A stretch of DNA of 64,000 nucleotides from contig MU004239.1 of the NCBI GenBank assembly GCA_010405405.1, positions 1,116,001 through 1,180,000 of the forward strand, given 5' to 3'. This document shows, in pieces, positions 1 to 62,444 of this stretch. Position numbers and translations under genes: made by a program. Within the stretch, counting starts at the first letter, position 1. The number at the start of each line of letters is the position of its first letter. Under the pieces are notes generated by a model. The model worked only from the letters and a program-made list of their open reading frames with translations. It had not been told where the DNA came from and ran no database searches. This DNA comes from Microthyrium microscopicum. Taxonomy: Eukaryota.

Positions 1-282
1 GCTGTTTCTTGACTTGGAACCAAAAAAGTCGTATTTCCCATCTTATTCGAAGGCTGCCAAAGAATGCGATGGGTGGGTTACGGTTTTGCCACGAAAAGTC
101 AGGATGGTCTTCCGCTACATTTCTTGACGATATCCGATGAAACCAAAAATTCACATCTCTGCCATCGCATTGGATGGCTCCCATCAGATGCGATAGGAAT
201 TTCAACGATATCATCCAAAGAGGTTGATGGTCTTTTCGAAGCGGGTCAGCTCCAATCTTGACCTTGTACTGACCATCTTCAG

Positions 283-2712
283 GCGGCCAAGTACTTGAGC
301 GCGTGGCGAGAGTTGAATCGCTGTTAGAGAGTCTGGTAACAAAACTCGACCAACATGTCAAGTATACTGGGAACTCGAATGGATTGGAGATACCGAAGTC
401 TGAGGGAACCGTATCCTTGTATGATACTCGATCAAAAGACTCCATAGTGCCCTCTGTATGTGGTCCTCTTCCATGCATGCATCGTAGCTCAATTCCTAAC
501 GTTCTGTCTATAGAAACGACCCCTCCAACAAAATAAGGAGCTTAAGGTCTGTGAGCTCAAAGTCTGCGAGCAGATGCCCACCCCTGAATCTTCTATTGCA
601 ACACCAGGAATTTCGACCTCTGGAGATTTTGAATATATGAAGGTAAGGTTTCCCCTGTGGCATCACATTTCTGATCTCAAACGATGGAATCCAAAATCAC
701 AAGATCTCCCATCGCACTCGATGCCTACCACGCAATGCGTTTCTGTATGAGTGCTATGGCTCCATCGAATGCGATGCGTGTTCCACGTTTCTGTGAAGGA
801 AATATCGAATGGCCTGTCCAAGGCGTGTTCGTTTTAATCGCAATCTTATACTAATACATCTCAGTTATCACAAACCCTACTTGCAGCATTCCCGTCACAA
901 AATGATATCGACATTCTTTGCAAGTCGGATTATCAAGCGACTTATTACTTTCACAAAATAATGACTAATGCGGACCATGGTCTCGATCACGAGGCATACA
1001 ACTTCGTCGACGAGCTAGCTCAGATACCAAGTCCTTCCACACATCCAGTTATGATTGCTAAACGCATGCTGATATTTGCATCGTTCTTACAATATTTTCC
1101 ACCTCACACGGTAGCAGAGCTCAGCGAACCGGCCTCAATAGTTATCAAACGACTGACTGATGCCGCTATTCAATTGGTGACCACGAATGACGATTTGGTC
1201 GACTGTATGGAGGGTTTGGAATGTATCGTTTTGGAAGCATGTTTCCAAGCCAATGCTGGCAACCTTCGGCGATCTTGGTATGCTCTGAGGCGAGCGATGT
1301 TAACAGCTCAAATCATGAAGCTGGATAAAGAAAATCAATCGCCGAGGAGGATCGATCCGAGAACCACGGTTGATCCTAAGTTTATGTGGCTTCGTCTGGT
1401 AATCATTGATCGATTTCTCAGCCTTATGCTTGGTCTTGCCGAAGGAAACCCGGGCAAGCTTTCATACGAAAATCTCAGCGCTGCAGATCCAAGGACACAA
1501 CTGGAGTTCATGCAGGCTGAAATCATTGGCCATCTGATCAGGCGAAATGCAACTGATCCATTGGCGCAAGATGTCCGCACGACACAAGACCTCGATGCGC
1601 AGCTACTACGTGTAGCGAAAAGCATGCCTGAGGAGTTTTGGCATCCCCCAAACTTTTCTATCCTGGAAATGAATTCTCAAGATGACTTTTCGGAGACGAG
1701 GCGTCTTGGCTATCAGCTTCATCATTTCAATCTTGTTCATTTGCTTCACCTGCCGTACTTGCTTAGTAGCAATGGCCACAGCTATGACAAATACGCAAAA
1801 TTTACGTGTATCAACGCGAGCCGCGAAATTCTTAGCCGATTTGTTGACTTTCGAAACTTTCACAAGTTCACGACCTGCTGCCGGACCGGCGATTTATTTG
1901 CTTGTAAGATATTTTCCAGTTTTAAACCCCATTTCTATACTCCGTCTGCTGGAATCAAAGACTTCTATATATATAGTATCTCCCATCGCATTTGATGGCC
2001 ACCATCGAATTTGTTCCTGCTCGAGTGCTATGGCGCCCATCGCATTCGCTGGCTACCATCAAGTGCGCTTCGGATCGAATGCGTTTCGGATCAAGTGCTA
2101 TGGTTTCCAATCAGCCCTTGATAAAACTCTTCTATAGTCTTACGCTAACAATTTTTAGTAATGGCAGGAATCACAATTCTCATCTCTCACATAGATGGAC
2201 ATCGAAATCCCAATCCCACGGAAAATCTATTAGCGCATCAACGACTGAGCGATCGTGCTATAGTAGAGCATGTGGTTGCAAACATGAACGAAGTCGCCAT
2301 GAACTCCGACGACAAGCTCTTAGGCAGGAACGCGGATATCTTGAAAGGCTTGCTCAAATGCGAAAGAGCAGCCGTGGATGACGACTCGTATACAGCCAGT
2401 TCTGCTCTTTGTTGTTTGGAGCAAGAATTCAATGCACTCCAGACTCCGATATCTTACTTTGGAATGGCCAAAGTCCCACTACATGTGGACAATATCCCAC
2501 TTCCAGTCAATACTTCGAACGATGTCTTTTCATTTGCTGGTCCACGACAGCCCTCCAGCAATGGCTTACTCCCTATGCAATCACAGCTCAGTTATCTTCC
2601 AGCAGATCAGCAAACACTGCATCCGAGTCTAACAGATACCATGCAAGACCCAATGTTTCAAGGTGTCGATGCTATGTTTTTTGACGGCGTGACGCGGGCT
2701 GGATGGCTCTGA
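283..2712 (+). CDS. Fungal-specific transcription factor (middle homology region), 5'-truncated by the window; probably Zn2Cys6 type. Exons 283-455, 514-642, 865-1903, 2159-2712
   Basis: The spliced frame is continuous across GTATGT/GTAAGG/GTAAGA..YAG introns. It gives a coiled coil ERVARVESLLE, then LLAAFPSQNDIDILC, NAGNLRRSW..LRRA...AQ.M and DRFLSLMLG, typical of fungal TF domains. The Zn cluster exon is not in the window. Confidence 0.75.
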
Positions 2713-2806
2713 GAATAGCATAGGGAATGTCAAAATACTGTCATCAAAGCAATCAACTTAGGTAGTCGTTGGTGGGGGGTATGTTGAGATCAATAGCCAA
2801 GTTCGC

Positions 2807-3148
2807 AAGGCATCGTCTGCCTCGAGGTTTGGCGGAGCCATCATGATCTTTGTTGTATGCACCTTCCCTTCTCGGTGGTTGTTCCTGCTATGTTTCTGTT
2901 GTCGGTTTCAGCCTAACTGGCAGTTGCTCCCAGTACGAGACGAAGTCACGATCAGACAATGGAGTCAATGTCCCACCGCACACTACCGGCCTCTTCAAAC
3001 TTCCTCTTCATCTCCTCTATCTCGCTTCCCTTCGCCTCATGAGTCAACTTTATCTGGTTCAGTCAATTCTAGATAACGCTGAAATGCTGAAATTCGTTCC
3101 TGGACGAGAGCTCGAACAGGGTGACCTGCGGAAACTCTTCGACGAGCT
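2807..3148 (+). repeat. Degenerate partial duplicate of ~4262-4645 (upstream region plus first ~22 codons of the neighbouring gene)
   Basis: DNAEMLKFVPGRELEQGDLRKLFDEL vs DNVEMLKIVPGQEFEEGDPRKLFDEL. Upstream blocks also align (caaggcatc..gtctgcctcg..ggagcca; gaagtcRcgaYcaga). Confidence 0.85.
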
Positions 3149-3365
3149 TGCAAGCAGCAAAACCATTTCAAATCCGCAGTGCCGGTATCTCGCCCTACAA
3201 TACGAATTGATATACTGCGATTGTAACGTTTCCGCTGGACATGAACACCAAGCACAACGGCATTGCAAGTGTCGCAAGGTATCACATCCTCAAAGTCTTA
3301 ACTCATTACTCGACTTAAAGTTGTTGTAAAGTTCTATGGTACAAAATCTGGAAGGTGCTAGGTAG

Positions 3366-4133
3366 TCACTAACGGCATGTCAAAATAAATGGCGTGCTCC
3401 CATCAACTCTGATGGGTACCACCAGCGCTGCTAACCAAAAGCTGCTTAAATTCCGCTCGTTTCCACACGTCCTCATCTCCTGGATCATAGTTCACTTGGA
3501 CTTCTCTCTTAACGATTCCGTCTTGAGGAAGATAGAACTTTCGTCGAGCTGGGAGTTCGCTGTTTATCAATTCTCGCATGAGGACGGCAGGTTCTTTAAG
3601 AGGCCTATGTAAGTATTAGTGAGTGAAATGGCTACAATCGACACCTTGACTGAATAAACGGCAGCCTCCCATCGAGTGCGATGGCCGCTATGGCACTCGA
3701 GGGGAGGATGGGCAGACGGGCAGAGAACTTACGTTGGCTCGACCACCTTGATGACGCTGATTTGCTCGCGAAGAGATCGCCATTTCTCCGTGAAAACGTT
3801 CTTGGGATCTTTTTGCGGTAACTCTTCCAGCGTGTGGTCTTTTGAAACTACTGCTGGTGTCTGACGCGGTCTCGCTGCCGCGACTTTTGGCTTCGATTTC
3901 TTTTGCTTTTTGGCAACAGGCATATCCTTTTTCTTTGCTGTGGACTTTTTGCGCTTGCCACTAGGAGCATCAGACTCGCAGGACGAAGCAGAAGCAGATT
4001 TCTGGGTGTCATCATCCTGGGCATCAGAAACTGCATCGTACTCATCGTCGCTTTCCTGCGCAGGGTTCTTTTTCGTTGCGGATCTAGTCTTTCTCCCGGC
4101 GGTCGCGGCGGTAGCCGCCTTTTTCGGCACCAT
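3366..4133 (-). CDS. Hypothetical Lys/acidic-rich, probably nuclear protein. Exons 4133-3733, 3604-3436 and possibly 3368-3366
   Basis: ATG at 4133. Intron 3732-3605 (GTAAGT..CTAAT..TAG) keeps the frame open. A possible second intron 3435-3369 sits just before TGA; unspliced, the frame stops near 3403. Confidence 0.6.
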
Positions 4134-4581
4134 GGTCGACTTTGATGGCAATGCGGATAGCTATGAGTGGAGGTTGAGAACTGAGGAATATGAAGATGTC
4201 GATGATAGAGTTGGAGAATTTTGCAAGTGATGGTTGTGGATTTTTGTGTGGGAGTGGCAGGCAAGGCATCATCCAGTCTGCCTCGCAAGATATGGCAGGA
4301 GCCACCGTTTGTTTTTTGAATGCGCCTACCTGTCTTGGTGGTTGCTTCCCAACTTGTTTTTGTTAGGTGTCAGGAAAGGCAAGCAAGCACTGAGCAGGCA
4401 GTCGCGACCAAACCAAGGTGAAGTCGCGACCAGAGTTATTTTGGCATTGTGCCCACCACCCGGGTTCTCCATCTTCTTCACAACTTACTCTATACTTCAT
4501 CATCATCCACCTCCCTTGAACCATATAGCCGTTGGCTCCATCACCATTTTGTTAGCTCTAACAATTTCGGATAACGTTGAA

Positions 4582-5557
4582 ATGCTGAAAATTGTTCCTG
4601 GACAAGAGTTTGAAGAGGGTGACCCGCGGAAACTCTTCGATGAGTTGTTGCTCGCAGCCTATTACCACAACGAGCATTCGAACTTCGATGCGGCGATTAT
4701 GCAAGTTCAAGCAAACTTGCAAGTTCCTGGTCTTTCGACTTGGTATAAATGCGCAAATATGATCATCGGGCTCGACTCAAAGGCTGCCTGGGATGAGGAA
4801 GCAGACTATTGGTACCACGCGCTACGCGGCGCCATCGCGCGTTTCGATGTTGAGATCAAGGGAAAGCCTGAATTCACTGTGCTTCTTGATGATCTGCGCG
4901 ATTGCTTGGATGATCTCACTAAACAACGTGAAGAAGAGGGCGCTGACCAGCCTTGAATTCAAGACCCGTCGTTCGATGAAGCGTTGGCGCAGGTAAGCAT
5001 TTGCCAATGACATCTTTTCTCTATCTGGATTGACACCGCTTCAGCAAGCCTACGAGGATGAGAAGACATCGTGGGATCGCGAGGAGATGGCAGTACTTAA
5101 TGAGGAGTTCGCAGAACGTCAACGCGAAAAGGCTGGTGCCAAAGCTGCTAGAACTGATCTCACCGAAGAGGAGAAGAATTATAAACCCAAGTCGCTGGCC
5201 GAGAGACTGGGCGGAAGTGCTGTGAGCGAGGGCCACAAGCCTTTCAAATCTCCGATGAAGTCCAAACCCGATCTTGACCCTCCGCCAAAATCCCCCCTCC
5301 CGACGCGACTCGTTAGCAACAAGAACGCCGTACCCAAGAGTCCCAAAACAATTGGACGTACCTCAAAGTTCGAAACCATAGATACATTGCCTGCCATCTA
5401 TGACACAAAGCCCCGCAAAGGTCGCCGAGAGTTGAAGAAGAAGAAAGGCGATGCTATCGATATTCGCGAGATGTGGCACAATGATGAGTCTGGCGAGAAG
5501 GGCAAGAAGGATGACGAGACGAGTGCGGATAGCGAGGGGACTGCAGAAGACCGGTGA
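4582..5557 (+). pseudogene. Hypothetical protein with one in-frame TGA (4954-4956). Exons 4582-4992, 5045-5557
   Basis: The frame continues past TGA for 12 codons to a GTAAGC donor at 4993. Splicing to the CAG at 5044 joins it in frame to the 5045-5557 ORF. Confidence 0.55.
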
Positions 5558-27900: not shown

Positions 27901-30900
27901 TACTCCAGGATCTACAAGACAAGCGTCATGATCCAAAGCTACCTACCAAACGTCTCATTCGATCACTCCAAGAATCCGAATTAGTCGCCCCGCTTCTCAT
28001 TCTCTTGGCTCACGAACGCGAATCTTACATCTTTCGGCCGTCAACAGAAAACATGCCAAGCAAAGTGCTGTCAAAGAACGCTGATAAACTTCATCACGCT
28101 TTTGTTCAATATCTGGAAACCCTACAGACCAACTTGTCAATTCAAGATTTCAGTGCCACGATACCTGCTGTAGATCAATTGATCAAGCAGTATGGCATTC
28201 GTCCACCTATTGCTTTTCTCATCTCACGCGATATTCTGCGACAACGTCTAGAAGAGCATAGACAGGCTGTCAAAGCTGCCAAGCTGAATGGGAAAGTTGA
28301 TACACCCAATGATGGCGATCTTGAGATGGCAGATGGCAACAAGACCGGGCAAGAAGCTGTACCAACCGCAGCATCAGCTCAGGCCGATGACTTGGAGGCA
28401 AAAAATACCGAAATCTCCAATGGCGACGTGACTATGAAAGACGTCTCTGCTTCAAGTGCTACCCAAACTTCTGTCACACCACCATTGCTCCGAGACCCCT
28501 CAATGACCTCCCTTATCGACAAGATGCGTGGCACCTTTGAACCCAACTATGAGGATACCATGAGTGTTGCATTTTACGTCTGGTTCTGGCAGCTCAATAC
28601 TACGGACTTTTACTGGCCACAGAAGTCTTATGACATGGAGCAAGCCAAGATCAAAGACCGAACAGATGAATTGAAAACCGAGCGACTACCTGGCACAACT
28701 AAAGCCTCCCGCGATGCAGAAATTGTCAAGCTCAACGCTCGCAATGATGTCATAATCAAAGAAAAGACGGCTCAGGCAATGCATATCACAGTCGTACGAC
28801 GAGATCTGCGAAAGGAAAAGGATACATGGTTTGCTCACGTCTCCCTCAGTGATAGCAAAACCCTGTGCAACAACATCATTCAGGAGCTCATTCTTCCTCG
28901 AGCACTGCTTTCTCCTTTTGATGCTCTATATGCTTGCAAGTGGATCTTTTTGATCCATGCTCTAGGAACACCCGGCTTTCGTACCATTCACATTATTGAC
29001 AAAATGTTTAACACGAATTTCCTCACGAGTGTTATCACCTCGTGTACAGCCCGGGAAGTCGACAATTTTGGTTGGTTTCTCAACGAACTCTTGTCAACGC
29101 TTGCAACCTGGCACACCAAACAGAAACCAATCCGCGGCTCTAACGAAAAGCCTAAGGAACCCACCGACATATACGAGGAGCAAGCGATAGGAACCAAAAA
29201 GGATCTCTCTGGTTTCTGTACCAAAGTCAACGACGACATGTCGCCAGCAATCCATCTCTCCTGGCAAGACTATCGTCGTCTTCTTTTCAAATGGCACGGT
29301 CAGCTGCAAACCAGCTTAACGCAGCTCTTGACTGCTGGTGAATATATGGGCGTCCGAAATGCAGTTTCTGTTCTCAAGGTCGTTCAAGCACAATATCCGG
29401 CGACTGCGTATCATTACAATAAATTGAAGGTCAACTTGGAAAGTCTTGTTGCCAATGATCATAGAGGAGATGTTCGACTGGTCTCAGACTCTTGCTTGTC
29501 CGAGCTTAAAAAACGAGAAAAACTCATGGTCACCTCTGATTCTTTCCGCACTTTGGCTGACAACGCGAAACCTTCCAAGTCTGAATCAGCACAGCCTTCA
29601 AACACTGAGAAGAAAGACCTCAATCCCGCTGTCCCGGAGTTCAAACCTACCTCTACCATGTAAGTTCACGGGTCTTTGATTTCAATTCGCATTCTAACCT
29701 GTTCTAGTGACTCAAAAACAGCCCCGTCGAGCTCTGGAGAGGTTGAGGACGGTGAGATTGATGACGCGAAGAAGGCAGCGATTCAGGCACTAGCCAATTC
29801 GAACGCTGCAAAGCCTGATACCTCGATCCCCAAATCTGCGGACGTCAAGGATGCTCCGGTTGAACCAAAGGAAAAGCGCCCAGAAACAAAATCTAGTGAG
29901 AATACTCAGTCAGCATCTACAGCTAGACAAGAAGTGCACAAGTCACGACGAGCAGGCGACAATTCGAACTCGGTTCCAATAAATCGCCAAAATAACGGCG
30001 AAGCATCTTCTCGCAATGGAATGCGACGTCCTGGCTCTCAATTACCACCACCGCCTGCTCAGCACGCGCTGCCTCGTCGACCTGATGGCGAGATCCCCAA
30101 GGATCAAATCACTCATCACTCCAATGAACGTAACAAAGAGAGACCCAGCTATGGAAACGATTCTAGAGGACCCGAGGCTCCACGCGATGCCCCTCGAGGT
30201 CGCATTCAAGATCCTGCAGGACATCGGAGCCAGAATAGAACTCCTGAGCCTTCTGTCGCCCGTGGGAATCGAGATATGTTGCGCGAGCCGCCTCGAGATG
30301 CTCATCCTCCGCGAGATCCTTATCCTCGTGATCCATATCAACGAGATCCTCGGGAAACAAATCTACGAGATCCGCGAGATGCCCATGTACGCGATCCTCG
30401 AGATGCACATGTACGGGACCCTCGAGAGACACACGTACGAGATCTTCGGGATATGCATCAGCGAGATCCGCGAGATCCTTATTCTCCACGCGATCCTCAC
30501 TCATCGCGAGAAAATCATGCTATGCGCGATAACCACCCTCGAGATGTTCCCCCTCCACGAGAGACCCAAGCTTCACGCGAATCGCATGTGTCTCGAGATG
30601 GAGCTATTCCCCGTGATCCACATGCTTCACGCGACGCTCGCGAACCTCGAGGTCCCCCTCCAATGCGTGATACTCGACAGAACATTAGAGCGCCTGATCA
30701 AGTAGAATCTTCAGCGCCAAAAGACCGTGGATATGACATGTCTCGCCTACACCCTGATGGAAGTCGACCACAAGCCACAAGTCAGCGACAGCGTGATCCC
30801 CCTCCTCCTCCACCTCGCGAACCACCAGTCAATGCTGAACGCGCCGCAATAATAGATCACGCACCATCTGGACCCCGATTGGATAGTCGCCGAGGCGATT

Positions 30901-31817: not shown

Positions 31818-33121
31818 GACTCTCCGAGCTCACCATCGCGAAAGTCTACGGATGCTGAACTGGAGCAGCCGCCTATTGATGCGCCGTCAAAGCCACAAAA
31901 GAACATGCGCAAGCGACAGCATCGTCGGCGATCATGATTTTTGAAAAATTGTAGATGAAGCATACATGCCATGGTGTTATTGGGTAGGAACAGGCATAGC
32001 CGGTGCATTGTCAAGGCGTTTGTGTTGAGCGGTGGAGATTCAACTTGTCTTTTTGTAATTATAAATACTACTTTGTGATGGAGCATTGCACAGGTGTTGG
32101 CGGATTATTTGATGGGTTTGCATAGCTTATTGTAGGAGATACCACTCACTCTGCTTTGGAATATATGGCCTTTCTACTTCCATCTTCATGCTTCTACTTC
32201 GATGAATAGCCGGTGTCGTAAAAATGATGAAGTGTAGCAGCATATCCACTCCCGTGTAAAAAGTAACATTGATTTCAATATGCTTATGTTCTCGCAGGTA
32301 CCATGTTTGGTTTCGCAACAACCAAGGAGATGGGCAGAGGCTGCCCGAACCTGTTCGCAATCCGCGATGGCTACCACCGGCTCAACTAACAAGAGCATAC
32401 TTATTCCCCAATCTTGAACGATAACAAACACTACTCAAATAGTCTATGTTCGATTTCAAGTGCGACCGTTACCTTCACAAATACAAATCGAAAGACCGGA
32501 CTTGCAAGGATATCTTATAAAGCCTCTGTCCGTCAGCACACATATTTCAGGCTTGTCAAGGATACTTACTTGTAGCTACTCTACCCTTGATAACACTGCC
32601 TTGAATCTTCGAATACGCTCAGCCTCCAAGTTTACGTAGGTTTAGATCCGGAATTGGGGTTCCGCCTAAAATCCATGTAGCTGAGTTATAACTTCCGCTT
32701 GACCTATTCGTTCCTCTTTTCACCTGGCTCGGTCGCAGTTCCCTTGGCAAATCTTCTGCTTTTCTTTTCCGAGGATTCCTGATAACCTGAGAGAGTATAT
32801 ATGAGCTGGTCTTGGACAACCAAAAAATACGTGCCAGACATAGACCGCAGATATCTAACCTACAATGCTGGTGCTGTCTGGCCTATCATGGACCAAGCAT
32901 GCTGTAAGCATGTACTTTAAGGCCCGCTTACCGCCGATAGATACGTGGATTGCAACATGTCTAATTCTAAGCTTGTTCTATCCTTACACCCTTCCCAGAC
33001 CGAAACTCAAATAACATTGAGACTTTGCTCTTTCTTGTTGGGTCTGTTCTGCTCGCTCTGGAATGCTCAAGCGACTCCCTCTTTCTTATTCTTCATCCTT
33101 CTTCGACAATGATTATGTAAC

Positions 33122-35955: not shown

Positions 35956-36497
35956 GATGACTGGGAATGAGATCTTGATTGTTATATGATGAGCTTTTGA
36001 AGTGATGGAGAATGGTGATTGTTTGGTTTGCATTGTAAGCGATAACTATAGACTCATGCGGGAGAATAAAGGACCAGCGTAGCAGTGACATATAAGAACG
36101 GAAAGTGGTAAAAGAGGAGTATTTCGATCACATACGCTACTATGACTTTGTCATTGATGATGATGTATCTGCTCCTGGCTCCATAGTTTGAAAGAAAGAC
36201 AAATAGGTCTTACAGTCAAGGAGTACCAGAACAATGACCTATTGAAAGAAACAGACGACTTTTACGTATTTATATTCAACATACCACAGGTAGTAAGTAT
36301 CAGAAGCAGAGATACAAGTGAGAAGGAGAAGGTTGACGCTATCTTGCACTCACTTCCTATCGTCAGTATTTGGGGTATAAAAGGCTTTGCCCATCGCAGA
36401 AAATGCTCTTCATTACAAGCACAATCCCATACCTAAACCATAACACTAAAAGAAAACCTGATACGCCAAGAGTACGATCAAGAACAAAAACAACAAC

Positions 36498-37499
36498 ATG
36501 TACGGCAGCTCTCGCATGTTCCCCGGCGCTCAGCGCTCCACTGGACCCGGAAACCAGTCTCTTGCTCAACTAATCACGGCAATCCACATTCGCATCAGCC
36601 AGATCGAAACGGATTCAGAATACCTCGACTACTACCATGAAGCAAAGCAGGACTGCCACTTTGGCGGACCTAGCCCCATTGTGATCCAAGAATTACTATC
36701 AGCTGAGCGCCGACTCATCCAAGCAGACCCAGAGCTCACAGCCATGTTGGCGGATGCCAAAACGCGCTTGACGCAGATCATCAGTTCTGGAGACACCAAG
36801 AAGATCAAGCGTGCGAAGAAGCACATGGTCTTGTTCTTTTCTGCGTTTCGCGGCCAGCCGGAGTACGGCTTTGTGGTAGATGTGCCGGAGGTTGAGGGTG
36901 CTATTCTGTATGCTGGGTTGTTGGGTATTTCGCGTGGTGAGTTTATGGATATGATGGATGGTCAGAACGAGCTCTTGGAGTTTGACGATAGTGATGATGA
37001 GGTTGCTGGAACAGCGAGTGCCGCTGGTGGACGTGGTGCTCCTTTTGGAGATGCTGGTCGTGGTGCTGGTATGCCTCCACAAGGTATGTTTGGTGCCAGC
37101 GCTGCTCATGGTGCTGGTATACCTCCAGAAGGTATGTTCGGTGCTGGTGCTGGTGCTGGTGCTGGTATGCCTCCGCAGGGTATGTTCGGTGCTGGTGCTG
37201 CTCCTGGTGCTAGTGTGCCTTCACAAGGTATGTTCAGTACTGGCGCTGGTGCTGCTGGTGCTGGTGTGCCTCCACAAAGCATGTTCGGTGCCAGCCCTGC
37301 TCCTGGTGCTGGCATGGCACAGTCTGGCCCAGGTATCCCATCCGCTGGGCTCAATAGCTCTCGAGCTCCAATGTTTGGAACAGGAGCAGGCCGTGGAGGA
37401 GCCGGAGGTCTTGGAGGTACTGGAGCCCGCGGAGCAGGCCGTGGAGCAGCTCGTGGAGGGCGTGGCAATTTTGGTGGTTTTGGAGGTTGCGATATGTAA
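36498..37499 (+). CDS. Hypothetical intronless protein with a helical N-domain and a Gly/Ala/Met/Pro repeat plus RGG tail
   Basis: 333-aa ORF preceded by TATAAAA at ~36377 and a good aacATG context; five GAG(M/I/V)PPQGMFGA-like repeats. Confidence 0.7.
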   Translation: MYGSSRMFPGAQRSTGPGNQSLAQLITAIHIRISQIETDSEYLDYYHEAKQDCHFGGPSPIVIQELLSAERRLIQADPELTAMLADAKTRLTQIISSGDTKKIKRAKKHMVLFFSAFRGQPEYGFVVDVPEVEGAILYAGLLGISRGEFMDMMDGQNELLEFDDSDDEVAGTASAAGGRGAPFGDAGRGAGMPPQGMFGASAAHGAGIPPEGMFGAGAGAGAGMPPQGMFGAGAAPGASVPSQGMFSTGAGAAGAGVPPQSMFGASPAPGAGMAQSGPGIPSAGLNSSRAPMFGTGAGRGGAGGLGGTGARGAGRGAARGGRGNFGGFGGCDM

Positions 37500-39161: not shown

Positions 39162-42100
39162 ATGGACGACGCCGAGCCTATGGATCTCGCCATGAGCTCC
39201 ATTCTCCCTCCTCAAAACCCCACGTACGTCAGCTCGCCCCAAACCCCGTCTACTCTCATCCAGTACGATATCTACCAGCTGCTATACTCAGAATCGAATG
39301 CTTCATATATCATAGTATGCGATGATCGGATGACTTTCTTACGCATTCTATTGGAAATGAAGCTTTCGACAGCGGAGAGTAGTAGCTGTTAGATGTCGTT
39401 CTGGATTGGAGCAAACCAGTTGCGCTATTCTGAAAGTTGGAGCTCCCAAAGCTGATCATTCCTTAGTACTACCACCGATCAACCTACACAGACTACCCCC
39501 CCTCCAGGTAACCAGCTTCTATATCACAATATTGCCTGTGAAAGGCTAGCTAACATCATTGTAGCATCGAATCAACATGACGACGATTGGGTGGACGATG
39601 ATGCTATGGACACCACGCCCGACGGATCTCCAGGTCCCGCTCCCCAAGAACACAGCACCTCCCCTTCATCCCCTCCAGCACAAGCCCCAGCAGAAATACA
39701 AACAAATGGCCAAGCCACACAGCCTGTAGCTTCGCAAGATGGATCAACACCAAGTTCTGGCGAAAATGCTGACGAGGGTGAAGATGCGACCTCAAGTGAA
39801 GACGAAGATTACGATGATGAATATGATGAAGAATGGCATGAGATTACCGAAGACATGTCCGTTCCTACTGAGCAGGAACTAAAAGAGCTCAAGGACGAGA
39901 TCAGTGCCAAAGATGATCCGCATTTCATGAAACTGCTCACTCAGAGCCTCGACGATCCCCAAGTTCAGCCGGGAGAGTTTGGCAAGATTGACTGGTTGAT
40001 AGACCGATACAATGGAACGCGGGAGAACCCCAACAAGGAGCTTTTAATGAGGTCTCCCGTGACACGAGTTGGAGGCTATGACTGGCAGCTCAAACTCTAC
40101 CCTAGGGGTAATGACACTGAATATCTTAGCGTCTACGTCGAGTGCGTCAGTGTCTCCAATAAAGAGAAAATGAAGGAGAAGGAGAAGGAAAAGGAAAAGA
40201 CCGGCGCCAAATCCAAGTCGAGACGAGGCTCCAAAAAAGAAACTCACCCAAAGACACAAATATCGATACCAGCTGTGACCAATCAGCACACTCCTCTACC
40301 TCTCCTGGATCCGAAACCCATCCCAAAACGACCCAGCATTGCAGCATCTGTGATTGTAGTAGTGTACAATCCAGACGAGCCTCGAGTACACCACCAACGA
40401 TCGTGCCTACATAGATTCTGCCCCAACTCATCAGATTGGGGCTGGACGAGATTTTATGGCCCCTACTATGAGATAGGGACTCGTCAGCGTGGACAGCGCA
40501 CTGCTCTCTTGAGAGGTGACAAGTTGGCGGTGACTGGATTCATTCAGTTGATAGAAGATGAAACCGATGGCAAATACGAACATCAAAGCAGAGAAAATCC
40601 ATGGGACTCGTTTTCAATGTGTGGTCTACAGAGCATGATCAGTGAGAGGTTGCCGCAGTCCACGGTACCGGCTCTATCTGCCTGGTTGTTGGCCAAACCT
40701 TTCCGAGAATTCCTTTACCGGACTCCGACGCCGGATCCAGACTATGACCATCATGGAAAACCAATGCCCATGGTTAGTGGTTTGAAACTACTTTTGGCCC
40801 AGCTACGAACCCCTGTGCCTATTGAGCCAGAGAGCAATTACCGTACTCCCGTGGATATGGATCCAATTCGTGTTGCACTTGAATGGTATGGGATCGAAGA
40901 AATTCTTCTCAAATGCGATGTAATCGAACTTTGGGAGGTAATACGAGCACAATTGAAGGAAGAACTCAAAGACACGCCGTTTGAAAAGGAGCTCGACTTG
41001 CTCTTTGGCACGGAGAGAAGTCGGACAACTGACAAGGCCCACTATTCTGTTCTCGTCAAGGACGCTGGTACGATGCAAAATGCAATTGATCAGTCCCCCG
41101 ATCTCATCCCGGAAGACTGCGAACCTCCTCGAATTTTGCACATTGAACTCAACCGTCAACACTTCAACGAAAAGACTCGCACCTGGCAAAAATTGTCTGA
41201 CAAAGTCACTCTCGATGATCATGTTGACGTCAATGGCCAAAGCTACACCCTTTATGGTTTCATTACCCACGATCGTGACCTCCAATCATGTCTCTTTTCC
41301 ACAATCGTTCGACCAAATGGTCCAGGCACTGGTTGGTATCAATACAATGACCGAAAGAACTTGTATGACACTAGAGAAGAGCGTCTAGTGCAGCGTCTTA
41401 CAAACAAGGAGGCCATTGAAGCTCACGAAGGCGGCAAACCAAAGAAAACTGACGATCCAGAACCCAACGTTGCTTACATTGCCATTTACTTCGCCGATTT
41501 CCTTGGTGAAGACGCTTTCAATTCGAGTGAACCGCACTGGTAAGATTTCATGATCCGAATCAGTTCATGATCTGTCATTGATCCTACGCTGACAATTTTT
41601 AGGGATCCCGCTTGGATATCGCACTACCTCCCAACCGCATATGATTCTGAGACTGGTAGTCCCATACTCACAGCCGCTAAGGAGGCAGAGCTTGATAAAA
41701 TCCAAGCACCAATAAAATTGGAGGTCCTAGCCATCCATTCTAAGGCATTCCTGCGATGGCAAGGGCCTGGCATAATAGACATCTATGACGACGGACCGAA
41801 CAACAAAGCGGACATGATCAAATTCATGGTTGATGAGACCGCAAGCGCCACTGATGTCCGTGACAAAATCGCCAAACACGTCCCAGATATCAAAGACGCA
41901 CGACAGGTCAAACTCTGGCCCTTTGATCCACGCGATGGTGTCCAATTCTCACCTGTTCTGGCTCGAGATGATACTTCCAGCAAACACCCCTTTGGAATCA
42001 TAAACCCTCTCACACGCGATCCATCCCAGAAGTCAAGTCAGCGATGGGTATGGTATACTCTTTTGGATGATTCGCAATTGGAAACTATGAAAAAAGAAGA

Positions 42101-43547: not shown

Positions 43548-44371
43548 GATGGCGCGGGCTGACAGGTTGAACTGGGTGAGACTGAAGATATTGTTAGGTA
43601 GGAAACACGAAAGTAGATTGCGTACGGGTTTTGCTATGATCTTGGGAAATTCCTTTTAGTTTGGTGTTTTGAGCGTTGATGGGGGTATACCCTTGTTGAA
43701 AGTTGTTGTGTTTTCTTCCTACTGTTTGGTATTGGTAGATAGGATGAATTTATATATGATATTTTTCCATCAAATAAGATGGCTTCCACTAACCTCCTTC
43801 GGATCACTCACTGGCTGAGATCTTGCGATTTACTTTCTTACTAGTTGATTTCACACATGAAATGAGATAAGCCCACCTTTTGCTTAAGAGCGTTGATGGC
43901 AGTCATCAGAGTTGACAAGTGGATGAAGAAGGCGCGTTGATCAGATGAAGATGTACCTACATATATGAGGCTCTGCTTGAGGCGCCAAGGCGAGATTGTC
44001 ACCCTAGCGCCTTGCTTCCTTAGGCGCTAATACTCCAACTTCACGGCTAGACCTCATCCACTGAGACGACGGCCTCTCACTACCCGATTAGCAGACAACC
44101 TTCTTTCATCTTCACCAACACTTATTCCCAAACTTTGGCTCTCTGCCTTTTGTTCTTCTAGCAATCGCTCACTTGATCTGCTTCTTGTTTTCTACCTCGA
44201 CTCCCATCTCACTAATTCACCCTTGAACTTGTCCACTCCTCCTCACTTACCGGCCTACCCACTTTATCGCCCAAAGTCTCACCTGTCATGCGCTACATCC
44301 ACTTCTTGCCTGCTCAGCTTTATTCCCCCTCATAGTTTTCGGGGGTCAGAGAATACAGGCACCCGCTCACC

Positions 44372-46355: not shown

Positions 46356-46989
46356 TGGCAAGCGCATAACAAAGATTGATTGGCGTTCTCTCATCAACTT
46401 TGCTGGCTCCTACAAACGCTACTACATTAAAGTCCTATAACTATAATTGCATTCAACAGAGTTTGCCAGTCTTCACGCCGTTCGTGGCACTGAGCGCACT
46501 CCATACCAAAGCGTCTTCTGTGGGAGGCATCAAAGTCGATACCAGCGCAACTTCTATGAGAGCCATCAAAGTCGGCAGTGCACAGACCATATTCTAATAC
46601 CCCCTTCTTCTTTTGTTGTTATCCACTTTTATCTACTAGCATGGCGTTTCTACTCACGGTTTCTTCTATGGGAAAGCATCATTTGCATGGGAAAAAAATC
46701 CACATAGCCCTGGAGTTGGACGGTCTGCTGTTTTTCTCTCTTTCCTCAAAGCCCACGAGACAATGGCACATTGGCTCAACAGACTTTTGCACTCCCTCAT
46801 TTTCTTCTGTAAACAGATAAAAGAGGTTTGTGTGTGCGTCTGAAAAGTGCGTTGAACGAGCAAGACGGGTAATTGATGTTGGGAGAGTATATGTATTTTA
46901 GAGTGTCTGGAAGGACATACGAAGGCCTTAATGACAGATATATATTACTTCATTGGCATTCTTTTTTTGGTGTTGCTTACTACTTGTTA

Positions 46990-57903: not shown

Positions 57904-59079
57904 TGTCATCTCCACATACTTCCGCTTTTGGAGGAAGAGTAGACGATCGAACTGGACGAATATTGATGAGGCGGTGGAGGCGGCTTGTATTCTAGGATGG
58001 ATTTTAGGTTTTGATTGCACCGATACCCCTATTTGTAGTGGCGATGGTCTTTTACTGTCGTCTTGCGTTTGAGGGTGGACAGCTTGCTGAGGCAAGGTGG
58101 TCTGCTCAATGTATTATTATGATCCTGCTTGTCTATCCCGATTGCAAGTGATTTGCGTCGTGTGTTCTTGCGTAGTGAGTCTGTTGCGGATAGCATTTGC
58201 ATGAAAAGCTTATCGCCAGACTACGTGCCTCTGATTATCCTTCGAGCTGGTGCATAACCTCTGATGGGCAGTAAGACAAAGTGTCATCTTGGACTCGACA
58301 GCGCATGAGATGGATTGTGAGGGGTCGTCGTGGGATGGAGAGTCTGGGCGGTAGTTCTTAGAAAGGTTGCATAAGGAGCTATGGGTCAGCAAACAAGCGA
58401 CAGAGAGGAAGTACATGCATGAGGAGAAGCAGGTAATTTTGTGCTCAGTGGGTGAGTGCCAAAGTGGAAGTTGTGAATTTCGGCAGTGAGCTGTGAGGCT
58501 GTCTGTAAAGAGATACGCTTGGCATGGCTAAAGCTCGGCTTGATGGAGTATGCACGAATCCAATCTTATCCATCTTATCTCTCGTCCTAGATAAAGGACC
58601 CGCTCCAGCCGCTCCCATCAGCTTCGCTGGCATCCACGAACGCTTCTCAATACGAGGTGGGATGTTTTCTAATATTTTCGCTAAAATTCTCGGTTCTGAA
58701 AGCCATATATGGTAAATACAGCACTCGATAGTAGAGCGTATAGTATGAGAGCCATCTAAGTCGATGGGTGCAGGCGCAATTATTTTGTCCATCTTGTCTT
58801 GTCGTCTTGAGAACGGGACGTGGATAAAATGCCCACTCTCAGCCTGATACACTTTCGAACAAAAAGCATACTATTATTTATGCATTTGTGCAGTCACAAA
58901 TTCACTATCAGTGCCCAGCCTCCCAAAGATAAACAAGACTATAAGGCCGCCACCATTTTCAAGCCTGCTCATCATGCAGCGTGTCCTCGCCCTTTAGAGC
59001 TCAAATTTCACTCCCTCATTTTTGCGTTTCAAAATGTTCACAAACCCTTTCAACATCCATTCGCATCTCGAAACCAACT

Positions 59080-60166: not shown

Positions 60167-61088
60167 TAGCTTTAATATCCACGATTACCTAAGGCTCGAA
60201 AGCTGTTCGTGGGGAAAACTGTACAGTTTATCACAGCCATGGTGTCAAAGCTCTGAATCAATTCTCAACATTGCACTGGAAGAGTTCTACCAGTCTAAAC
60301 ACTCTTTATGGCACTCAACACACTCGATCCCGTTGCGTGTTGTGTGGGAGCCATCGAAGTCGGTGGAGGCACTCTCGTCATTTCCTATTCGTTGACACTC
60401 GAATATCTTAGTGTAAACATGTAGATCATTGCACCTTTTATGCATCTAGTAGCATGATGTGGCCGCGTCAGCCATATTGTCCATCGGTTGAGTGTATTTG
60501 AGAAATGATATCAGGCTGAATCTTATCATATCTTTCAATCTCTCGTGGCCCCCACGTGGCGTAGCGCCGATTCCCAACTTCATCTCTAAAGTTTAATCCC
60601 TTTAACTTATTCCAACTACACCTCATCCTTCCAAAATATTTGTCTTAATGATTTTACAGTATATGATCTATGCAGTGCCTGCACATATCTATAGCTCCTT
60701 CTTACCGCATCCGCATGAGTAAAGGCCGCCAAGGACATAACGTTATGCGCGAACTCACGAAGAGGCTATGTCCGTGCCAACATGCCGTCGGCATTCCGAT
60801 TCCGTATGCGGCGTACTGGACATTTTTCAAAGGCCCTTGACTACAGTAGATCGCGATACATAACGTATCATGACGACACGACTTTGTCAAGCTGAATGTT
60901 CGTGCTTACCGTCGGCATGTAAAGTACGCCTGTAGATCCAATGGGAAATCTTGCTGCCTAGCGCCATCAAAAGTCTATATATCAACTTCACCCCAGATTC
61001 ATTCCCAATGACTCGCAAGCATTTGATACCAAGGCCCTTTCCATATCTTCCCCTGTGTGAATTCATACATCGCAAAATTTAAATCATC

Positions 61089-62444
61089 ATGCCCCAATCA
61101 ATCCTCATCATCGGTAACTCCATCGCCGGCCCAACCCTTGCTACTTTTCTGCTTCTCTCATCCTTACCTGCATCTGAAAAGCCGCACATCACCATCCTTG
61201 AACGCGCACCCAACATCCGCGTTCATGGGCAGAACATCGACATCCGCGGCGCTGGACTCACGCTGCTCCAGAAACTCGGACTCGAAGCTGTTGTCCGGGC
61301 GTCCACTACTGGTGAGGCTGGCGTACGAATTGTAGATGATCAAGACCGCACATGGGCGGCCTTTCCTGCTGGACCGGGCGGTAGTGGGCCCACAAGTGAT
61401 GTCGAGATTCTACGGGGACGATTAGCAGAGATATTGTACGAACGGAGTCGCACAGTCAGCGAGGAGGTGAAAGGCGAGGGAGGACACGGGATCGAGTATC
61501 TCTGGGGCGACTTTTTGACGGACATTGAGCAGAATGGAGAGATGGTTGATGTTGTGTTTGCAAAGAGTGGAGCGAAAAGGAGTTTTGATCTTGTGGTTGG
61601 TGCGGATGGACTGCAAAGTCGGACGCGGAGACTTGTGTGGGGAGATTATGGTGAAAGCGAGCGGGTCAGGAAGTTAGGGATGTATGGTGCGTTCTTCAGC
61701 ATGCCAGTTGGAAAGACTGATAGTATGTGGAGACGGTGGTATCATGCGGCAGGCAGGAGATGGATCATGATCAGGCCAGATGAGCAGAGAGGGCTGACTA
61801 CGGTTTTCATGGCTACGATTAGCGATGATAAGAGATGGGCGGAGGCTGCATTGAAGAGTCGAGCAGGTCTTGATGGCCAAAAAGCTTTGATGAAAGAGTG
61901 CTTTCAAGATGCTGGTTGGGAAAGTGAAAGAGTATTGAAAGAGATGGAGAGTACGGAAGACTTTTACTATGATATGATTGCACAAGTAAAGATGGATAAA
62001 TGGAGCAAAGGGCGAGTAGTACTTTTGGGTGATTCTGCGTAAGCCTTTCACTCCTCACACATCATCGAACACTGGCAAATTGTTGACTTGATTCCCAGAT
62101 TCTGCGCTTCTCCAATATCTGGAATGGGAACTACGTTAGCAATGACTGGCGCATACAACTTAGCTGGAGCACTCACGCAGCATCCTGATGATCCAGAAGC
62201 TGCATTTTCTCAATACGAGAAAGCGCAACGGCCAATCGTCAACAGTGCACAAAAACTAGCCCCTGGCTTTCCACACCTGATCACTCCACAAACGCCATGG
62301 GGAGTATGGATCCTTCATGCCATCATGTGGATCATATATAGATCGAGGTTGATCGATCTGCTCTCAAAAATTGCGGGGCCACCTGCAGGTCTTGCTCCCA
62401 TCAATGACTATGGATTCAAACAGCTGTCTGATATCAGTTCGTGA
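61089..62444 (+). CDS. FAD-dependent monooxygenase (FAD_binding_3), one intron (~62039-62098)
   Basis: ILIIGNSIAGPTLA, GQNIDIRG, EILRGRL, DLVVGADGLQSRTR, WSKGRVVLLGDSA|FCASPISGMGT. Confidence 0.92.

Follow-up and report, generated by a model that had tools for sequence, protein, structure and literature searches.

The stretch of DNA analysed here (hereafter the window; 64,000 nucleotides, positions 1,116,001 to 1,180,000 of contig MU004239.1, assembly GCA_010405405.1) belongs to the ascomycete Microthyrium microscopicum and opens inside a gene for a Zn2Cys6 fungal transcription factor (TF), the long introns of which carry copies of a 16-bp palindrome, CCATC-N6-GATGG. The visible part of this plus-strand gene spans 283-2712 and ends in a stop codon; its exons, taken from a spliced contig of sequencing run X5, lie at 283-455, 514-642, 865-1903 and 2159-2712, and the zinc-cluster exon lies upstream of the window. 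A convergent neighbour on the minus strand, delimited by its open reading frames (ORFs; 3403-4133), encodes a lysine-rich protein of unknown function. The TF gene contains intron A (1-282, the 3' part of an intron with its 5' end before the window), a regular, motif-free intron of 58 nt (456-513), intron B (643-864, 222 nt) and intron C (1904-2158, 255 nt), the last two being putative introner-like copies, while the neighbour contains intron D (3605-3732, minus strand, 128 nt). Finally, a member of a dispersed 84-bp element, delimited by the read depth and the contig ends of DNA run X1 and given no strand, occupies 3371-3454.

Intron boundaries were read from run X5, which we treated as cDNA since four canonical introns are cut out of its contigs exactly. 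An 8,271-nt contig of this run matches the window without a mismatch and skips 456-513, 643-864 and 1904-2158, all of them with GT..AG ends, and a second contig skips 3605-3732, whose CT..AC ends assign it to the minus strand. Since the transcript contig starts at 281, intron A ends at 280-282 and begins upstream of the window. The 222-nt and 255-nt TF introns proposed in an earlier reading of this DNA (the original prediction) are therefore removed exactly at their predicted borders. For the neighbour, the prediction had two motif-bearing introns: the 128-nt one is spliced, but no splicing of the putative last intron (around 3400-3415) was seen, the X5 contig being continuous over 2159-3604 with the 84-bp copy retained. 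The hosting introns are also longer than usual, as had been proposed: introns D, B, C and A measure 128, 222, 255 and >282 nt, against 58 nt for the RNA-confirmed regular intron and 44-64 nt for 18 short introns predicted heuristically, and unverified, elsewhere in the window. These 18, which served as control introns, are the candidates of at most 64 nt among 62 returned by the heuristic; the other 44 were discarded, many candidates being clearly false long introns in ORFs.

The palindrome is far more frequent than expected by chance. Seven matches to CCATC-N6-GATGG were found in the window where 0.15 are expected, and none of 100 shuffled sequences reached seven, as the original prediction would have it. 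Looser descriptions gave the same picture, with 20 strand-matches for CCATCGCATTCGATGG at up to three mismatches (0.57 expected) and 23 for CCCATC-N6-GATGG at up to one mismatch (1.25 expected); the distinct sites of the latter number nine in the first 3.7 kb and six in the other 60 kb. A re-reading of the sequence together with a motif scan located every predicted copy and half-copy: in intron A at 62-72, 162-177 and 181-196; in intron B at 709-724, 749-759 and 762-777; in intron C, as seven modules or half-modules between 1983 and 2103, at 1983-1998, 2002-2010, 2021-2033, 2037-2052, 2056-2067, 2074-2083 and 2090-2103; and in or near the minus-strand neighbour at 3400-3415 and 3669-3684. The proposed absence from exons holds for the four TF exons, none of which has a site, but the motif is not confined to introns, weaker sites being present at 43767, 45778 (probably coding), 58752 and 62397. 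The central six bases of the palindrome vary freely and its stems co-vary as hairpins. In intron D the copy at 3669-3684 is included in a hairpin with 24-nt arms (3662-3685 and 3687-3710) that are 83% complementary.

Introns A, B and C are homologous to one another well beyond the motif. From the very first intron base onwards, B (643-780) can be aligned collinearly with C (1904-2055), and 97 of the 138 aligned positions are identical. Blastn searches within the window paired B 704-776 with C 1978-2051 at 75.7% identity over 74 nt (E 7e-10); for A 117-192 and B 665-739 the identity was 70% over 77 nt (E 4e-5). An internal unit of A aligns with B at 72 of 93 bases and places a degenerate GTCAGG (about 97-102) opposite the GTAAGG 5' splice site of B. 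The leaders outside the core are also alike, in B and C (z 4.0, a score attained by 2 of 1000 dinucleotide shuffles) as in A and B (z 3.8; 5 of 1000). Conservation runs 40-70 nt past the palindrome. The regular intron at 456-513 has no similarity to introns A-C in the same shuffle-controlled comparison. Intron D shares a core, 3669-3701 being the inverse of 2020-2052 in intron C at 85% identity. The palindrome of the original prediction is thus real, but the unit that is repeated is much longer than 16 bp.

Within the introns the modules have themselves been duplicated. Intron A consists of two diverged tandem units (15-73 resembles 138-197, 70% over 61 nt) with a period of about 123 nt and motif copies at 38-53, 57-72, 162-177 and 181-196, while intron C holds a 54-nt tandem duplication (at 1983 and 2037), the spacing of the direct-repeat families D1 and D2. 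These duplications, together with a 43-nt joint that goes back on itself in contig data from another locus, are what an independent expansion of a minisatellite in place in each intron would produce. Such an origin, or mere chance, is nevertheless hardly credible: the shuffle controls exclude chance, an independent origin cannot explain the collinear homology of separate introns, and Tandem Repeats Finder detected no array in the introns, reporting for 1-4500 only two short, unrelated ones.

The genome contains an abundant repeat to which the intron cores are related. The 84-bp member at 3371-3454, which carries the hairpin CCCATCAACTCTGATGGG at 3399-3416, resembles the core of intron D (3653-3684 against 3384-3415; z 6.6, 0 of 500 shuffles) and, at lower scores, the cores of C (z 4.6, 1 of 500), B (z 3.7, 3 of 500) and A (z 3.3, 3 of 500). 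Run X1, possibly the source of the window itself, supplied 201 contig pieces that aligned to the first 4.5 kb at 80% likeness or more. The bin at 3301-3450 has a summed word depth of 15,389, against 103 for single-copy flanks, and bins with intron cores reach 2-4.5 times the single-copy depth; depth is no copy number, and no more can be said of the 84-bp element than that its copies are on the order of a hundred or more. At base 3416 the window has G where 55 DNA contigs and 32 X5 contigs have C.

The ends of the contigs give some outline to this family. Loose ends agree beyond 3454 (0.77) and disagree before 3371 (0.39-0.53). The disagreement marks 3371 as a true terminus of the family, and since other copies continue past 3454, the copy in the window is truncated there. 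Positions near 148, 195 and 1999 are each joined to 3371 in single contigs, as is 3408 to 3667; segments of the intron type and of the 84-bp type thus adjoin at other loci. Contigs from other loci have an architecture of leader plus core, and their loose ends before 691 and 1976 resemble the leaders of A and B.

Further copies of the 84-bp element were detected in the window by blastn. A diverged one lies in non-coding DNA at 46364-46424 on the plus strand (72% over 61 nt, E 1e-5), a weak one at 43874-43915 on the minus strand (78.6% over 42 nt, E 3e-5), and others still weaker (E 0.03-0.5) at 58611-58647, 32366-32403 and 62393-62424; the weak copies are located downstream of ORFs. A second, inverted copy lies about 1.4 kb before base 1 on the same X1 contig, within the 8,271-nt TF transcript contig, so that two inverted copies bracket some 4.8 kb containing the TF gene. 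A second flavour of palindrome, GAGCCATC(R)AAGTCG(A/G)TGG, was seen in non-coding DNA at 46500-46590, 58740-58770 and 60340-60370, each time after TGAGA or TGGGA, and may be another subfamily of the same hairpin repeat. Rfam gave no match for 1-4500 at E≤1, ARAGORN predicted no tRNA gene in the whole window, and a tRNA-like head is absent from the element. An exact scan of metagenome contigs with a 20-mer of the 84-bp hairpin in its majority form returned no match.

Homologues of the TF lack these introns. The protein belongs to a family of conserved Zn2Cys6 proteins of about 740 aa, with 180 homologues at E≤1e-10, the best of them 51% identical over the whole 346-aa exon; among the best 120 of the 180 many bear a Zn(2)-C6 (fungal-type) name or a PF00172 or PF04082 assignment, and the corresponding ESM Atlas clusters carry Fungal_trans. 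Nine metagenome loci (L001-L009), found from the alignment of the homologues, were searched by tblastn with the spliced TF. The junction at intron B (..EYMK|LSQ..) is contiguous and ungapped in all five loci that cover it (L001, L002, L003, L005 and L006), and the junction at intron C (..DLFA|LMAG..) is contiguous in eight of eight (L001-L006, L008 and L009), L002 and L003 giving identical matches and each being counted in these totals. In L001, L005 and L006 a single unbroken match runs across the position of intron A. At both the B and the C junction the introns are seamless, no residue having been gained or lost. In L001 and L005, the closest loci at about 52% identity, an intron of the form GTAAGT...CTAAC/CTGAC...CAG lies just before the same (K/Q)RP residues as the 58-nt intron. 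The 58-nt intron, which lacks the motif, is old and shared; of the homologues examined, only that of this lineage has the motif-bearing introns A, B and C. Two further runs, X6 and X7, held identical sequence at low depth and offered no contrast of presence and absence with the window.

None of the nine homologous loci has a match to the palindrome, which bears on the second proposal of the original prediction, that the palindromes form a cluster of sites for a dimeric protein that binds DNA or RNA and may be the TF itself. Such sites would be kept in the introns for regulation, and palindromic symmetry and the many occurrences in and beside one regulator gene speak for them. The usual site type of Zn2Cys6 proteins has CGG half-sites. 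The palindrome has none, and it is the stems, rather than the central six bases, that are constrained, in the manner of hairpins. Since conservation extends well past the palindrome, the genome has a highly repeated 84-bp element related to it, and homologous genes are devoid of any site, we regard regulatory binding as very improbable, and this part of the original prediction found no support.

The folding and the ends of the introns were also compared. Intron C folds better than any of 200 shuffles (z -3.6), intron B has z -1.8 (-2.7 for its core, 700-785), intron D -1.8 and the 58-nt intron -0.4. The idea, also from the original prediction, that the repeats remain neutral to splicing by folding is therefore plausible, and the z values of -1.8 to -3.6 lend it slight support. 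Introns B and C each have, exactly 22 nt from their 3' end, a 7-nt stretch complementary to their own 5' splice site, and this stretch forms the closing helix of the minimum-energy fold. A scan for inverted repeats revealed no terminal inverted repeats (TIRs) longer than 7 nt, and no target-site duplication was evident: introns C and D are flanked by no direct repeat of 2 nt or more, and at B the exon and intron ends share only AG.

A separate likeness concerns the 3' end of intron C. Its last 21 nt (2138-2158, from branch point to 3' splice site) are identical at 19 of 21 positions to 41582-41602, the end of a predicted 63-nt intron in a USP7-like gene; when the test introns were compared with the 18 control introns, this pair scored 17 and the next best 12. 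The predicted intron also has a 6/7 complement of its own 5' splice site, again 22 nt from its 3' end. Judged by sequence, it could be a decayed member of the family, or the likeness could be due to chance.

Taken together, we think it somewhat probable that CCATC-N6-GATGG is the stem-forming core of a short, hairpin-rich repeat family in this ascomycete genome. It is our favoured interpretation, held with the same modest confidence, that introner-like elements (ILEs) carrying their own 5' splice site, and derived from this dispersed hairpin repeat, gave rise to lineage-specific intron gains. Because the motif belongs to a dispersed family, B and C are homologous from their first base, and the positions of A, B and C are intronless in the homologues, the introns themselves look like the element and not like mere hosts of it. 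The original prediction had proposed an intron-resident element loosely like ILEs, and these same three results support a stronger form of that proposal.

The main competing explanation is that A, B and C are old, ancestral introns that were lost in the sister clade and have been enlarged here by insertion of a hairpin repeat resembling a miniature inverted-repeat transposable element (MITE) or a short interspersed nuclear element (SINE), a repeat that would have entered untranslated regions and intergenic DNA in the same way. Several results weigh against intron gain, and this explanation draws on a number of them. In a maximum-likelihood tree of the TF the window protein is sister (SH-aLRT 80, weak) to the clade with all DNA-verified loci, and since all verified loci fall in that clade, parsimony does not separate one loss per intron on its stem from one gain. 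No homology is detectable between the 3' parts of the introns: the A-B score there is reached by 87 of 1000 shuffles and the B-C score by 908 of 1000, and of 153 pairs of control introns 19-129 score as high or higher. The repeat also lives outside introns, in the unspliced copy at 3371-3454 and the weak copies downstream of ORFs, and the copy in intron D, judged by its flank, is antisense to its gene; the unspliced copy and the antisense one show that the family is not intrinsically intronic. At a likeness of 80% or more, the intron-type cores are covered by no more than about five additional contigs. Fold z values are modest, and two of eight sub-segments are unremarkable (1-134, z -0.35; 1975-2110, z -1.15). 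The RNA label of run X5 was only guessed by the tool. Finally, a 2025 survey of annotated genomes lists M. microscopicum with 0 introner families (PMC12130899). Its pipeline clustered annotated introns at e<1e-5 and needed at least four genes from different paralogy groups, so that three diverged copies in one gene would not qualify.

Other observations are difficult to reconcile with enlarged old introns. B and C are collinear from base 1, leaving almost no old 5' intron sequence, and the splice-site-like GTCAGG is kept at the aligned place in the internal unit of A. Enlargement would need three separate insertions in one gene, each beside a 5' splice site and, as far as seen, each without a target-site duplication, and the only demonstrably old intron, 456-513, has no copy of the repeat. 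Since introns older than about 50% protein divergence should not be 70-77% identical from their first base, the balance tips to gain, and from the sequences we infer gain rather than loss as the direction of change; ancestral introns with later insertions are unlikely, though they deserve more weight than any other alternative.

A local duplication without any mobile family was also considered, in which one TF intron was copied within the gene or its transcript, by reverse splicing of a lariat or by recombination, and the likeness to the 84-bp repeat reflects a shared hairpin module only. The strong clustering of sites, nine in 3.7 kb against six in the other 60 kb, and the small number of genomic contigs that match intron-type cores agree with this, and it would explain the null result of a survey that discards similarity within genes. 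Contigs from other loci share the architecture of leader plus core, however, with joints linking intron-type to 84-bp-type segments, and a related core is present in the unrelated neighbouring gene. We consider purely local copying improbable.

Under intron gain by ILEs, the repeat family would have two branches. One would be the element of 84 bp or longer, highly repeated and residing in transcribed non-coding DNA. The other would be an intron-shaped unit that starts with its own 5' splice site, GTAAGG or GTAAGA, and continues with the leader CATTTCT...GATGGAATCMAAA, one or more palindromic modules, and a branch point with a 3' splice site. Copies of this unit would constitute introns A, B and C of the TF gene, with a related core in intron D of the neighbour, and their multiplication would have produced lineage-specific, seamless intron gain without target-site duplication; later, modules would have been duplicated in tandem within the introns and the sequences would have decayed. 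As no target-site duplications were seen, RNA-mediated reverse splicing would account for this better than cut-and-paste, and copying presumably took place at the RNA level. The hairpins, in turn, would fold the long introns and bring their splice sites together in a genome where introns are normally about 50-60 nt.

The surroundings of the TF gene include an orphan. Run against Pfam at E≤0.01, the TF exons, the neighbour exons and the flanking ORFs gave no match, a sub-threshold Dehydrin on the lysine-rich exon being the only hit. The neighbour protein has no match in Pfam, the Protein Data Bank (PDB) or the Atlas: in the Atlas recognition was below threshold, with bacterial beta-lactamase fragments as the nearest clusters, and in the PDB one exon gave nothing and the other immunoglobulin noise at E≥0.07. 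The one relative found in the databases is P0241, the model of this gene filed for the same species, which has a different 3' end. P0241 ends with 31 residues encoded at about 2946-3036, which implies a last intron of about 430 nt, from roughly 3037 to 3466, with weak GTGTGG and AAG sites and spanning 3400-3415. The X5 contig instead supports a read-through ORF (3403-3470 region) that stops inside the 84-bp element, so that, by this continuous RNA contig, the last 16 or so codons and the stop codon of the gene lie within the element. No synteny of the neighbour with the TF homologues was found in L001-L009.

A single X5 contig connects the last TF exon, across the intergenic DNA, with the 3' exon of the convergent neighbour (2159-3604), and the two transcripts probably overlap in their 3' regions, if the contig is not a product of merging during assembly. 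The orphan gene is flanked by a 79-nt direct repeat of 87% identity (3072-3150 and 4570-4647), both copies of which lie in plus-strand ORFs with the common peptide DN.EMLK.VPG.E.E.GD.RKLFDEL; this sequence likeness points to a local duplication in which the 5' part of the downstream gene came to lie on both sides of the orphan. Elsewhere in the window there are two coding-looking tandem repeats unrelated to the palindrome, one at 37052-37316 (period 48/96 nt, GAGAGMPPQGMFGAG-like, in ORF 36462-37499) and one at 30322-30476 (period 24/48 nt, in the ORF after the THO2 gene). An ORF for deoxyhypusine synthase is 100% identical to a protein recorded for M. microscopicum, and its next-best matches are in other Dothideomycetes, at 84-86%.

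How spliceosomal introns are born is still debated, and the origin and copying mechanism of ILEs in fungi are unknown; new introns made from copies of an element are a known route of intron gain that is rarely caught. The locus is a compact test case, with three related, RNA-confirmed long introns in one gene, which contain a hairpin module also present in a highly repeated element and are missing from all homologues examined, and with an old, motif-free intron that is shared. A more specific scenario is possible, which we put forward as a tentative and rather doubtful one: an abundant, non-intronic hairpin repeat would have given off a branch, the intron-shaped units, which gained the full set of splicing signals (5' splice site, branch point and 3' splice site). 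Local multiplication, leaving no target-site duplications, would then have supplied one regulator gene with three new introns and its neighbour perhaps with one. If true, this scenario would be a link, caught in the act, between a dispersed repeat and the birth of fungal ILEs, in a genome scored as introner-free by a survey, and the palindromic modules would be self-folding devices that permit the splicing of introns four to five times the normal length. Should copies of the whole intron exist elsewhere, ILE-bearing fungi would extend to a lineage scored negative, diverged families would be seen to escape surveys based on similarity, and the dispersed hairpin repeat would be a candidate progenitor of ILEs; should there be none, this would be an ordinary short repeat lodged in introns and untranslated regions (UTRs).

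The repeat can be set beside several known systems. MITE- and SINE-like repeats of fungal genomes are short, non-coding and dispersed. The 84-bp element is likewise short, non-coding, hairpin-bearing and highly repeated, and resides in UTR-like and intergenic DNA, but unlike them it has no TIRs, target-site duplications, tRNA-like head or Rfam match. The ILEs of Dothideomycetes, the fungal class to which this genome also belongs, are reportedly known from work of van der Burgt et al. in 2012. Like ILEs, the introns described here are genuine spliceosomal introns, removed at canonical sites (222, 255 and 128 nt) and longer than the regular introns of the same genome (128, 222, 255 and >282 nt against 58 nt). 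ILEs are recognised by tens to hundreds of near-identical intron copies in unrelated genes, whereas here there are three or four diverged copies (70-77%) in two adjacent genes; their homology spans the whole intron including the splice signals, whereas here it covers the 5' 60% only and is not demonstrable for the 3' part. The highly repeated, non-intronic relative is a further difference. The comparison is one of descriptions. A literature search, judged by titles and the beginnings of abstracts, returned no paper linking M. microscopicum or Dothideomycetes with introners.

Fungal ILEs are described as sequence-similar spliceosomal introns that are longer than regular ones, stably folded, newly gained and fast-decaying (PMC4457414; Collemare et al. 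2013), sometimes with two gains in one gene, and decaying until they look ordinary (PMC4457414). The 2025 survey reports introners as widespread in ascomycetes, labels families as carrying or co-opting splice sites, and assigns about 82% of confidently classified introners to TIR DNA transposons, a class marked by target-site duplications (PMC12130899). As in introners so described, the present family has copies both as genic introns and elsewhere; unlike TIR introners, it has no TIRs longer than 7 nt and no target-site duplications that we could see. A third system is provided by the sister (stw)introns of Hypoxylaceae (Sordariomycetes), which have proliferated, are sequence-similar and internally symmetrical, and sit seamlessly in their genes without flanking short duplications (PMC8469720). 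The introns described here share with them the similarity of proliferated copies, a symmetry able to form double-stranded intron RNA and the seamless junctions. The Hypoxylaceae introns have TIRs of 45-55 nt and a donor-disrupted nested intron, whereas here the modules are internal (16-35 nt) and terminal complementarity is limited to 7 nt; this comparison is again one of descriptions. The profile of the M. microscopicum introns is nearer to the fungal ILEs and the symmetrical introns of Hypoxylaceae than to introners derived from TIR transposons.

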